From Rhizodiscina lignyota (taxonomy: Eukaryota): a stretch of 64,000 nt of DNA. This document shows positions 34,634-39,036 of the stretch, one piece after another (position 1 is the stretch's first letter; every line of letters starts with the position of its first letter). Under the pieces are notes generated by a model. That model was not told the DNA's origin and ran no database searches. It saw only the letters and a program-made list of their open reading frames with translations. Location: the NCBI GenBank assembly GCA_010015805.1, contig ML978132.1, positions 62,001 through 126,000 of the forward strand, written 5' to 3'. Both the position numbers and the translations under genes were made by a program.

Positions 34634-36559
34634 ATGGAAGCCCTTCTCCGCCAGTCCAGGGCAATGTGTCCATTTTTGAAGAAGACGTCCCCCGCGACGC
34701 TTCGTAGTCTCTCGACCTCGACGGCTCAGAGCGCCTCGACCGGTGGTAGCACCATGTCCAACCTTCAGGTTGTTGCCCGCCGCTGCCCAGTTATGGGCAA
34801 AGCGCTCGCCGTACAGAGCGCTCGTGCTGGAAACGCCGCCCTTGCCGGAGCGTACGGAACGGCCTTTGTCAGGGCTTATCACGCGAAGGTGAACAGAGCC
34901 AATCTGCACACTAGCAGTGCCAAAGAGGCTCAGGCCGTCGATGTGGGTGTGGGACGTGAGGTTGAAAGTATGTACTATGCTGTGGCATTCGCCACACCCC
35001 GCAGTTGACCGGAGCATTCGTTAACAAGTCGAACAGCCCCATTTCCTAGCAAGTACAAGCCTGCCACGGCCGAACATATCCAGGAGCCTCAATGTATCCC
35101 TCCAGCGGCTCCCAAGCCTGCCAAGTTCGACTACGAAAGGTTTTATGGCAATGAACTTGACAAGAAACACAAGGACAGGTCTTACCGCTACTTCAACAAT
35201 ATCAACCGCCTTGCGAAAGAGTTCCCGCGAGCTCATACGGCCGATAAGGATGAGCGTGTGACAGTGTGGTGCTCCAACGACTACCTTGGCATGGGCCGCA
35301 ATGCACACGTACTGAAGACTATGCACGAGACGCTTGATAATTATGGTGCCGGAGCAGGTGGAACAAGGAACATCAGCGGTCACAATCAGCATGCTGTGGG
35401 ATTGGAGAACACTCTGGCCAAACTGCACTCGAAAGAGGCAGCATTGGTCTTCACCAGCTGCTTTGTCGCCAATGACGCTACCCTCGCGACCTTGGGGAGC
35501 AAACTTCCCAACTGCGTCATTCTCTCCGACAGCCTCAACCACGCCAGCATGATCCAGGGTATCCGCCACTCTGGCACCAAGAAAATGGTGTTCAAACACA
35601 ACGACATGGTTGACCTGGAGAATAAACTCGCAAGTCTGCCGCCTGACCAGCCTAAGATCATCGCGTTCGAGTCTGTGTACAGCATGTGTGGTTCCATCGG
35701 ACCAATTGAACAGATCTGTGACTTGGCTGAGAAGTACGGTGCGGTCACTTTTCTCGATGAAGTCCATGCTGTTGGCATGTATGGACCACACGGTGCAGGC
35801 GTTGCAGAGCATCTCGACTATGAAGCCCATGTCGCTGGCAAGCCCAAAGGCACTGTCATGGACCGCATCGACATCATCACTGGCACATTAGGCAAGGCAT
35901 ATGGCTGTGTTGGTGGCTACATTGCTGGGTCTGCCAAGATGGTCGACACCATCCGTAGTCTTGCGCCAGGTTTCATCTTCACCACCAGTCTTCCACCTGC
36001 GACAATGGCGGGTGCCCAGGCCGCAATTGAGTACCAGCGCGCATACCAGGGCGATAGGAGGCTCCAGCAGCTCCATACTCGTGCAGTTAAAGAGGCTCTC
36101 AATGCTCGAGACATTCCTGTAATTCCGAATCCGAGTCACATCGTCCCAATCCTGGTTGGAGATGCTGAGACCGCGAAGAAGGCGAGTGACATGCTACTGG
36201 ACAACTGGGGAATCTACGTTCAAGCCATTAATTATCCTACTGTTCCAGTTGGACAGGAGAGGCTCAGGATCACGCCAACGCCAGGGCACACGAAGGAGTT
36301 GAGGGACCATTTGGTCGAGGCCATCCAGACTGTCTGGAAGGACCTGGGCATCAAAAAGACCAGCCAGTGGGCTGAACAGGGCGGATTCATTGGAGTTGGA
36401 GTGAAGGACGCGGCGGCTGAGGAGCCGTTGTGGACCGATGAACAGCTCGGTCTTGAGGATGCGGTCAAGGAGATGAAGACTGGGAACGCCTTGGGCGTTT
36501 TGGAGAGTGTGCTGGAGAATGATGCACACAGGGCTGCACCAATCGCTGCGGCTGCTTGA
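34634..36559 (+). CDS. HEM1: 5-aminolevulinate synthase, mitochondrial (one intron)
   Basis: Presequence with CP heme-regulatory motifs (MCPF, RCPV), [32 protein letters not shown] and GTLGKA (PLP lysine). Confidence 0.97.
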
Positions 36560-37225
36560 ATATAGGCTCCGTCTACGAGGCCTGCCCGAATGATGTGGAT
36601 ATGAAGATGATATGTGCAGATGGAAATGTGGATCAGATCAGTGATGCAAAGACCGTGCCGATCTTTGCTCAATATACTACGTTCGATCTGACGCTTTGCA
36701 TTTCCAAACTGCTCTGTTCCTCCATTTGCACCCTTTGATGTGGCTGTCACTGAAACAAAACCTTGGACGCTCCGCTATGTGTACGATTTCCAAACGTTCA
36801 CTGAACTCGTGCTGTAGCCACCATGTGCTCGCTGCAAGCCACATTCCGTTGTTGATCAACTCCCCTTGCAACCTATGCCCGCCCGCATACTATTCTGGAA
36901 GTCCAATGCAACAGTCTTAGTTGTCTTTGGCATGCTGGGTCTGGATCTCAGACTCGAAGAGGCATCGATGTCTGCTTAACTCGTGCCCATTACTACCTAA
37001 TATCATAGAATGGATGGGCATAGCTGATATCTTTTCAAGATCACAACCAGCCAAAAAATAAATATATAATAATAAGAGTGGATTCGACTTTGCGTATGTC
37101 TCCCACAGATAAGTTATGCATTTTTATAAGTGCCTCGGGTAGCTGTGATAGAGTGGGTCTACCGACGAGCTGCCCCGCCGTCGAGCACCTATCAAGAGCG
37201 TTGTCTTCGAAAACTAAATCTTTAG

Positions 37226-37232
37226 TATATAT
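37226..37232 (+). promoter_or_regulatory. TATA-like element upstream of the tRNA-Leu gene
   Basis: TATATAT lies 33-39 bp upstream of the mature tRNA 5' end; function is inferred. Confidence 0.45.
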
Positions 37233-37264
37233 TGAACATGACAATTTCAGAAAGCCAACAAATT

Positions 37265-37469
37265 GGTGAGATGGCCGAGTTGGTTATGGCGTGTAAGTTT
37301 CCATTACGCACTAAACAATTAGTCCATGTCCTGACAACCATACAGCAGGTTAAGGTTATACCTTAATACGACTCTCCTGATGGGGTAATCCCGCGTGGGG
37401 TATGTTAACTCGTCCAAATTTATAATACATTATTCTAACTAGTGAAAAGTTCGAATCCCACTCTCATCA
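37265..37469 (+). tRNA. tRNA-Leu(AAG) with one canonical intron (37356-37374) and two spliceosomal-type introns (37293-37345, 37400-37449)
   Basis: Joining exons 37265-37292, 37346-37355, 37375-37399 and 37450-37469 gives an 83-nt cloverleaf: acceptor GGTGAGA/TCTCATC+A, A-box TGGCCGAGTTGG, anticodon stem TCAGG/CCTGA with loop TT-AAG-GT, a long variable arm, and T-arm GTGGG-TTCGAAT-CCCAC. Confidence 0.9.
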
Positions 37470-37475
37470 TCATTC

Positions 37476-37483
37476 TTTTTTTT
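37476..37483 (+). terminator. Oligo-T RNA polymerase III terminator
   Basis: A run of 8 T begins a few nucleotides after the tRNA discriminator base. Confidence 0.75.
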
Positions 37484-37652
37484 GCCCTTTTCTCCGTCTC
37501 TCTCAGACTCATGGCAATCTTTGAGTCTTTTAGCCTTTTGGCTCTATAGCCTCTTGCTCTATATATATATCTCTCTCTGGAGGTGCAATTCGAGACGAAG
37601 ATCATCTTATTTTGCTTCATTTTGATGAAGGTTGTGTGTGTGCCATGAGATA

Positions 37653-37694
37653 GCCCCCCTGCCCCCCCCCTTCTTTTTTTTTTTTTTTTTTTTT
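37653..37694. repeat. Poly-C/poly-T homopolymer tract
   Basis: C runs followed by a ~20-nt T run. Confidence 0.85.
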
Positions 37695-38268
37695 TGGCTC
37701 TGCCGTCTCAACTGATGACCTCCACATAGAACTTCACCACTTTCCTTCAGGTGCTCAATTCAAATCTTTAGTAGACTCGATTCACTAATTGTCAGTAAAC
37801 CAGCAATTATACCAGGACGTTCTCAAAAAGGCGTTCAGTCACTATCAGCATAAGTTAATTCCATCCGGAGAGGATAGATATGATGCTCTCTCACAAAGAC
37901 CTACTTTATAAGAAGCTATGTCGGGAAGCTCGACTAACGGAGTCCACTTCCCCAGTACACACAGTCTTAAGTGACGAAACCCTAAGCCACCGACAGTTCG
38001 TGGTATGATGCAACACCACCAAGGGTGCAACATCATTCTCATATTACAGCCCCGGTGTCAGTGTTCGCATTGATCATGAGTTCACGTTCCTGCACTTCAA
38101 CACCCTGCCCTCTATTTAAATCAGGGCTCATTAAGATTCTCCCACTTTGCAACTTCAAATCCATTCATCAAAGCAGGCAACAAGCACGACAGGTTGCATC
38201 TGCAAGCTTGATCAAAGTCTATACACACAACACCTTCAAGCAATTACCCGCATCACAAACCGAACACG

Positions 38269-39036
38269 ATGGCCTTTGGCGGCGTTCGTGGCATACCCAC
38301 GGGTCCCAATGGAACTCTGGGGGTCGTCATCAATGGTATGATGATCCCCCTCGAAGTATTTCAAGCCTCCGGGGCGAACCCTTGTAAACACCTCGTCCGC
38401 GAGGATTCATATTGCTTTAAGGGATGCTACGGCCCTGGTCCGGGAGGAATGTTCGCCGATATCCTAGGCAGAGACCCCATGATGGGTAGAGGAAGAGCGG
38501 GTGGTGGCATGATGGCAGGGGCCCAGTTCGTGAACCCTCGAGAACCACGCATGATGGACCCGCGACTGGATATGGGCCATCAAGAAGATCCGACAATAAG
38601 GTTTCTGAACCCTCGAAGCCCGAGATTGTTGGACCACATAGCGAGCATGCACCCGAGAGACCAAGAAATTGCGTGTGCGCGAATGGGTATAAGTCCATGT
38701 CCGTTTGTGGGTGTACCGTTAGGTATGCGCCGTCCAGATCCGACGATGATGGATCAACGAATGGGTATGGGGCCTCGAGACCCGAGAATGATGGATCAGA
38801 GAATGGGTATGGGGCCTCGAGACCCGAGAATGATGGCACAAATGGGCATGCGTCGTCCAGATCCAAGAATGATTACCGAGCAGTACGGCATGGATCCGGA
38901 GGAGCTTGACGAGCTCACGGGTCTGGACCCTCAACCTGTAGATGATCTGGGTCTAGGGATCTATGAAGGCGACGGATTTCCTCCTCGGGGTCGCGGCTTC
39001 AGGCGTCCATTCAATTACCTCGAACGGGGATACTGA
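38269..39036 (+). CDS. Met/Gly/Pro/Arg-rich low-complexity protein with tandem repeats
   Basis: Intronless 255-aa ORF with 42-bp repeats encoding MMDQRMGMGPRDPR; TATTTAAA upstream at ~38113. Confidence 0.65.
   Translation: MAFGGVRGIPTGPNGTLGVVINGMMIPLEVFQASGANPCKHLVREDSYCFKGCYGPGPGGMFADILGRDPMMGRGRAGGGMMAGAQFVNPREPRMMDPRLDMGHQEDPTIRFLNPRSPRLLDHIASMHPRDQEIACARMGISPCPFVGVPLGMRRPDPTMMDQRMGMGPRDPRMMDQRMGMGPRDPRMMAQMGMRRPDPRMITEQYGMDPEELDELTGLDPQPVDDLGLGIYEGDGFPPRGRGFRRPFNYLERGY

Follow-up and report, generated by a model that had tools for sequence, protein, structure and literature searches.

Here, we provide evidence that a transfer RNA (tRNA) gene of a Dothideomycete fungus is split by introns of two kinds. 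The gene, a tRNA-Leu(AAG), occupies positions 37265-37469 on the + strand of a 64,000-nucleotide (nt) stretch of Rhizodiscina lignyota contig ML978132.1, hereafter the window. We consider it likely that this is a maintained and probably functional nuclear gene, and that its three introns would be removed by the spliceosome and then by the tRNA splicing endonuclease. Direct reading of the locus, cut by coordinates, gives a class II tRNA in four pieces, with exons of 28, 10, 25 and 20 nt that sum to 83 nt. Its parts and the signals around them are listed below in window coordinates; the A-box and B-box assignments here and throughout are by resemblance to general consensus sequences.

37226..37232, + strand: TATATAT, a candidate upstream RNA polymerase III promoter element by its presumed role, 39 nt 5' of the tRNA start
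37265..37292, + strand: exon 1, with the acceptor 5' strand, the D-arm and positions 26 and 27 (from the ARAGORN cloverleaf)
37272-37283, + strand: A-box-like stretch inside exon 1
37293..37345, + strand: insert 1, a spliceosomal-type intron of 53 nt between tRNA positions 27/28, starting with GTAAGT and ending with CAG
37331-37335, + strand: branch motif CTGAC of insert 1, with its A at 37334, 11 nt before the intron end
37346..37355, + strand: exon 2, with the anticodon stem 5' strand (28-31) and the loop through position 37, including the anticodon AAG
37356..37374, + strand: insert 2, a canonical tRNA intron of 19 nt, placed at 37/38 by ARAGORN
37375..37399, + strand: exon 3, with position 38, the anticodon stem 3' strand, the long variable arm and the T-stem 5' strand
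37400..37449, + strand: insert 3, a spliceosomal-type intron of 50 nt between positions 53/54, starting with GTATGT and ending with AAG
37435-37439, + strand: branch motif CTAAC of insert 3, with its A at 37438, 11 nt before the intron end
37448-37458, + strand: B-box-like stretch made of the last two bases of insert 3 and exon 4
37450..37469, + strand: exon 4, with the T-loop, the T-stem 3' strand, the acceptor 3' strand and the discriminator A
37476-37483, + strand: T8 run resembling an RNA polymerase III terminator, 7 nt past the discriminator

An original prediction for this locus had already given these coordinates, the four-piece layout and the GT and AG ends of inserts 1 and 3, and direct reading confirms all three. 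The pairing it proposed between insert 2 and the anticodon region is likewise found, as 7 nt within the insert are exactly complementary to the anticodon loop. Its branch spacing of 10 nt needs correction, as both branch adenosines lie 11 nt before the intron end. The prediction further held that taking out inserts 1 and 3 would restore an intact 83-nt leucine cloverleaf and that standard scanners would overlook the gene, and a comparison of the raw locus with the sequence spliced in silico bears out both statements. ARAGORN called no tRNA anywhere in the 64-kb window, the raw locus included, with introns allowed or not, and the Rfam tRNA model had no match in the window at the gathering score and none at E<=10 in 37100-37650. 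After excision of inserts 1 and 3, ARAGORN reported a tRNA-Leu(AAG) with the 19-nt intron, a long variable arm, discriminator A and all stems paired. Removal of either insert by itself yielded no ARAGORN leucine call, and the leucine cloverleaf was restored at the GT/AG borders only. When folded, the raw 205 nt retained the acceptor stem alone (z -1.5). Broken stems or a lost terminator, by which a tRNA pseudogene would be recognized, were not seen: the stems pair after removal and the terminator is kept.

The restoration of a cloverleaf is specific to this locus. In a cut-and-scan control on both strands of the window, 262 candidate inserts of the form GT...branch...AG gave 350 variants with one or two removals. 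ARAGORN called three of these as tRNAs, all at 37265-37469; the best was Leu(AAG), and the other two use later AGs and lose part of the anticodon arm. Elsewhere in the window, none of the remaining 347 variants was called a tRNA. Assuming equal base frequencies, a simple calculation predicts that about 6 in a million random 50-nt inserts would start with GTRNGY, end with AG and contain a YTRAY motif whose A lies 10-12 nt from the end. A contig from sequencing run X1 (depth 147) spans 36900-37653 with 0 differences to the window, and is DNA-like, with no splice joints. As X1 is possibly the source data of the assembly, this agreement counters assembler error only and adds no independent support.

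Apart from the gene that hosts them, inserts 1 and 3 look like ordinary introns of this genome, because size, donor, branch spacing and acceptor all agree with those of local introns. A heuristic for introns that join open frames in the window returned 40 candidates, some of them surely false. Many of the 40 are 47-60 nt long, start with GTAAGT or GTATGT, carry a CTRAC- or CTAAT-type motif 10-12 nt before the end and finish with CAG, TAG or AAG. Overall, the candidate messenger RNA (mRNA) introns mostly measure 44-72 nt, a range that includes the 53 and 50 nt of the two inserts, and AAG acceptors occur among both. One local intron is confirmed by homology; it lies in the upstream gene for 5-aminolevulinate synthase (ALAS; 34634-36556, + strand), where alignment of the protein to the window delimits an intron of 69 nt at 34968-35036 (GTATGT...TTAAC...CAG, branch A 12 nt before the end). 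The predicted match between the inserts and the mRNA introns of neighbouring genes is thus upheld both by the 40 heuristic candidates and by the homology-supported ALAS intron.

The proposal that similar split tRNAs should be sought elsewhere proved fruitful in metagenome contigs, where six distinct genes with a GT...branch...AG insert at 53/54 and intact exons were found. The search pattern described a T-arm of the window gene's sequence type, interrupted at 53/54 by GTRNGT...AG, and left the branch motif and the remaining tRNA unspecified. It returned 10 loci, 8 of which are tRNA genes after insert removal. No tRNA was called on the raw loci (0/10), nor on the two chance loci L001 and L003 (0/2). 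The six distinct genes comprise one Leu-AAG (L002), three Leu-UAG (L004, L005 and L006), one Leu-CAG (L009) and one Ala-UGC (L010); the other two loci belong to near-identical pairs (L004/L007 and L006/L008). Once the inserts are removed, the cloverleaves of all 8 tRNA loci are intact, and each locus (8/8) also has an ordinary intron beside the anticodon, 10-34 nt in length with the longest in L009 (34 nt). Three of the genes contain a second GT-AG insert that the pattern had not selected, located in the D-loop of L002 (53 nt), in the variable arm of L005 (55 nt) and between acceptor positions 6 and 7 of L009 (54 nt). The ARAGORN labels are 'Arg(tct)' for L004/L007 and 'Leu(taa)' for L002. By our own reading of the paired stems, the long variable arm and the complement between intron and anticodon, we assign L004/L007 to Leu(UAG) and L002 to Leu(AAG); the program's labels deviate as a result of its placement of the canonical intron. 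Applied to the 8 raw split genes, the Rfam tRNA model detected L010 alone (36.5 bits) and missed the other 7. Several of the environmental contigs with split leucine and alanine tRNAs appear fungus-like, and the window gene would seem to be part of a wider class.

In prokaryote genomes totalling 596 billion bases, the same pattern gave one match (L011), a bacterial tRNA of ordinary type that owes the hit to a fortuitous match upstream; in viral contigs it gave 0 matches. L001 and L003 were rejected as split tRNAs because they represent one 425-codon bacterial-looking open reading frame (ORF) present in two records, which the pattern matched by chance. L011 sits in a metagenome-assembled genome of Acidobacteria; together, L001, L003 and L011 served as negative controls.

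Conservation of splicing signals was assessed on 11 distinct inserts, i.e., the two of the window, six metagenome T-arm inserts and the three second inserts. All 11 are 49-56 nt long. All (11/11) contain YTRAY at a spacing that puts its A 10-12 nt ahead of the 3' end, although the branch motif was not part of the search pattern. GTRNGY is the extended 5' splice site consensus of U2-type GT-AG introns in fungi, and all 11 inserts fit it, including the 5/5 that had not been selected by the pattern (the window's two and the second inserts of L002, L005 and L009). Similarity between the insert interiors did not exceed that of shuffles (highest z 2.4 among 55 pairs), and neither window insert has a second copy in the 64 kb, where matches were 14 nt or shorter. 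It is therefore unlikely that the inserts arose recently as copies of a single mobile element. Over 461 nt, L004 and L007 show 97% identity, without a single difference in the exons; one substitution falls in the canonical intron and two fall in the T-arm intron, of which one exchanges GTATGT for GTAAGT, and the flanks contain several more. Acceptor and anticodon stems vary between loci yet always pair, and the 5' acceptor strand of L009 does so across an intron. A run of at least five T lies 2-27 nt 3' of the discriminator in 9/9 loci (the window and the 8 metagenome loci) and never inside the gene, and a TATA-like element is found 37-62 nt upstream in 8/9.

Maturation of the window tRNA could proceed as follows. 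A precursor of about 205 nt would be transcribed, most likely by RNA polymerase III, to whose gene layout the upstream TATA-like element, the A-box of exon 1, a rebuilt B-box-like sequence and the T8 terminator would correspond. With its anticodon stem and T-arm interrupted, the precursor would be unable to fold the tRNA body. The nuclear spliceosome would excise the 53-nt and 50-nt GT-AG introns as lariats, in the same way as it acts on the U6 small nuclear RNA (snRNA) of fission yeast, which is made by RNA polymerase III. The L-shaped body would then form, and tRNA splicing endonuclease and ligase would take out the 19-nt intron at 37/38. The tRNA splicing endonuclease measures its cut sites from the tRNA body. 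Because this body cannot form while anticodon stem and T-arm are interrupted, the spliceosome is expected to act first and the endonuclease second. The A-box-like stretch is uninterrupted, and the terminal AG of insert 3 forms a near-consensus B-box together with exon 4. This rebuilding of the B-box may be a reason why the 53/54 site tolerates an intron.

Other explanations account for parts of these data. The split genes might be dead or dying copies that received introns recently, through reverse splicing or an introner-like element, while intact paralogues supply the tRNA. Such paralogues may exist elsewhere in the genome, the evidence for the split genes comes from DNA, and introner-like elements as well as parallel intron gains are described for Dothideomycetes (PMC4457414). 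We nevertheless regard this as unlikely, as seven distinct genes keep paired cloverleaves, consensus donor, branch and acceptor signals, a terminator and mostly the upstream element. The unrelated insert interiors (z at most 2.4 in 55 pairs) and the lack of a second copy in the window speak against fresh copies, and L004 and L007 have diverged in flanks and introns with identical exons. A further possibility is that the same gene is processed by the spliceosome but transcribed by RNA polymerase II, alone or within a longer transcript, and is released by RNase P and RNase Z. Coupling to RNA polymerase II is the norm for spliceosomal splicing, insert 3 splits the B-box, and the locus lies between two genes on its own (+) strand, about 700 nt 3' of the ALAS stop and about 750 nt 5' of the next + strand ORF. 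This origin of the precursor appears just as improbable as decay of the gene, given the T runs directly 3' of all nine loci and inside none, the TATA-like element of eight, the intact A-box and the near-consensus B-box formed by AG and exon 4; moreover, spliced RNA polymerase III transcripts do exist, U6 of Schizosaccharomyces pombe among them (PMC5855946).

Inserts 1 and 3 could also be bulge-helix-bulge introns cut by the endonuclease, with GT and AG ends that are incidental. Multiple and ectopic tRNA introns, including some in the D-arm and T-arm, are reported from Cyanidioschyzon, nucleomorphs and archaea (PMC9602550, PMC4090602). The motif was sought in an assumed geometry, with a 4-bp central helix, two 3-nt bulges in which the cut sites lie, and 2 bp or more on either side. 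None of the 11 inserts has the full motif, and their scores stay within the shuffled range (1/11 at 0.03). An endonuclease intron would have no use for a donor, a regularly spaced branch motif and a terminal AG, all of which are present in 11/11, and this makes the explanation very improbable. Chance resemblance or an assembly artefact is more remote still, to the point of being negligible: none of the 347 other removal variants is a tRNA, the X1 contig agrees without a difference (albeit possibly as source data), and the structure recurs in independent metagenome records.

Several observations weigh against a functional gene matured by two machineries. That inserts 1 and 3 are spliced is itself inferred from DNA sequence, and an uninterrupted Leu-AAG copy may exist elsewhere in the genome and make the split copy dispensable or silent. 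The CAG end of insert 1 abuts the CAG of exon 2 (37343-37348) and creates a tandem acceptor, CAG-CAG. Use of its second AG would delete three anticodon-stem bases and break the stem, and the ARAGORN leucine call is then lost. The 27/28 intron of the window has no counterpart in any metagenome locus. Two of the metagenome genes would pose awkward substrates for a spliceosome, as L005 would require a 13-nt micro-exon between its two GT-AG inserts and the first exon of L009 would comprise 6 nt plus the leader. No Pfam family was found in 12 flank ORFs of the metagenome loci. Because the search pattern demanded the 53/54 site, GTRNGT and AG, its yield gives no information on the frequency of the class. 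The contrast between exons and introns of L004 and L007 is based on very few substitutions. Avoidance of T4 within the inserts, where the longest T run is 3 in any of the 11 (the entire 205-nt window gene has no run of four or more), was considered as a sign of RNA polymerase III transcription and rejected; with T4 in 8/40 and T5 in 1/40 of the heuristic mRNA introns, it is not discriminating.

Fungal U6 snRNA genes offer the closest parallel to a tRNA gene with spliceosomal introns. These RNA polymerase III transcripts contain one to four introns with canonical splice and branch sites and otherwise unconserved sequence, and the spliceosome has been shown to remove the U6 intron in S. pombe (PMC5855946). 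The split tRNA genes share with them a short structured RNA, putative RNA polymerase III features, canonical splice and branch signals and varied intron positions. They differ from U6 in that the host RNA is a tRNA that has a second intron type for a different machine, and in that their T-arm site recurs across isoacceptors. As the host is a tRNA and not a component of the spliceosome, proximity to the spliceosomal catalytic centre cannot explain the insertion. Introns are also known from genes for U1, U2, U5 and ribosomal RNA (rRNA), and the determinants of insertion into non-coding RNAs are called unclear (PMC5855946); fungal U3 genes carry spliceosomal introns as well (PMC5832005). Like ascomycete rRNA and fungal U1, U2, U5 and U3, the split tRNAs have spliceosomal-type introns in an abundant non-coding RNA, recognised by their signals alone. 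Those RNAs are products of RNA polymerase I or II (one abstract calls U3 an RNA polymerase III product), whereas the host here is a tRNA and two splicing systems are combined in one molecule. For the introns of these RNAs, reverse splicing into abundant RNA has been proposed as the origin (PMC5855946, PMC5832005).

The tRNAs of Cyanidioschyzon merolae, nucleomorphs and archaea resemble the split genes in having 2-3 introns, in D-arm and T-arm sites and in escaping scanners (PMC9602550, PMC4090602). Their introns are cut by the endonuclease at bulge-helix-bulge motifs, unlike the inserts described here, which have GT, branch and AG signals and no such motif. Dothideomycetes are known for introner-like elements and for repeated intron gains, some of which fall within a few bases of one another in different species (PMC4457414), and parallel gain of this kind could account for the recurrent 53/54 site. 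Introner-like elements are multi-copy and reside in protein-coding genes, unlike the inserts, which have ordinary intron size, are mutually unrelated and lack a second copy in the window. It has been proposed that introns transpose by reverse splicing into the DNA of R-loops (PMC11146597). It is tempting to speculate that heavily transcribed tRNA genes are targets of such R-loop reverse splicing.

Full-text literature searches, whose coverage excludes most subscription journals, found no published report of spliceosomal introns in tRNA genes. Recent texts treat spliceosomal and tRNA introns as separate systems (PMC12530127, PMC10275265), and one of them sets the two splicing mechanisms in contrast (PMC10275265). 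Spliceosomal introns in fungal non-coding RNA genes are already known; in a tRNA they would constitute a new intron class, and a tRNA requiring both machines would end the strict separation of the two systems. On balance, we slightly favour the broader view that an ascomycete lineage, the Dothideomycetes and probably relatives, routinely sends RNA polymerase III pre-tRNAs through the spliceosome, with introns that form a fourth class of tRNA intron beside endonuclease, group I and group II introns. If so, introns of this class would occur at various positions in the tRNA and recurrently at 53/54, where the B-box is preserved by the terminal AG. A part of the tRNA set, at least for leucine and alanine, would be invisible to standard annotation; given that the Rfam tRNA model misses the window gene and all but one of the 8 split metagenome genes, tRNA genes would be undercounted in these fungi. 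The supply of tRNA would depend on spliceosome activity, and tRNA-Leu could possibly serve as a read-out of spliceosome capacity. The spliceosome would have a second and far more abundant class of RNA polymerase III transcripts after U6, and the split genes would provide a natural system for studying intron gain in non-coding RNAs.

On sequence grounds, the upstream ALAS gene identifies the host as a Dothideomycete fungus. The ALAS product is 100% identical (98% of the query) to a protein that NCBI assigns to Rhizodiscina lignyota, and the next-best homologues, 75-84% identical, are mostly from Dothideomycetes and lichen-forming ascomycetes. The downstream ORF (38212-39036, + strand) encodes a low-complexity protein with repeated units rich in Pro, Arg and Met, such as PRDPRMMDQRMGMG. 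About 200 nt 3' of the tRNA, the segment 37654-37705 consists of a C-rich tract followed by a run of 26 T (37671-37696), at which read-derived contigs break, and a short (TA)n(TC)n microsatellite is located at 37563-37580, about 90 nt beyond the tRNA terminator. The CCA end is normally not encoded in eukaryotic tRNA genes. In the DNA of L002, CCA directly follows the discriminator, ahead of a T5 run, which is probably a coincidence.

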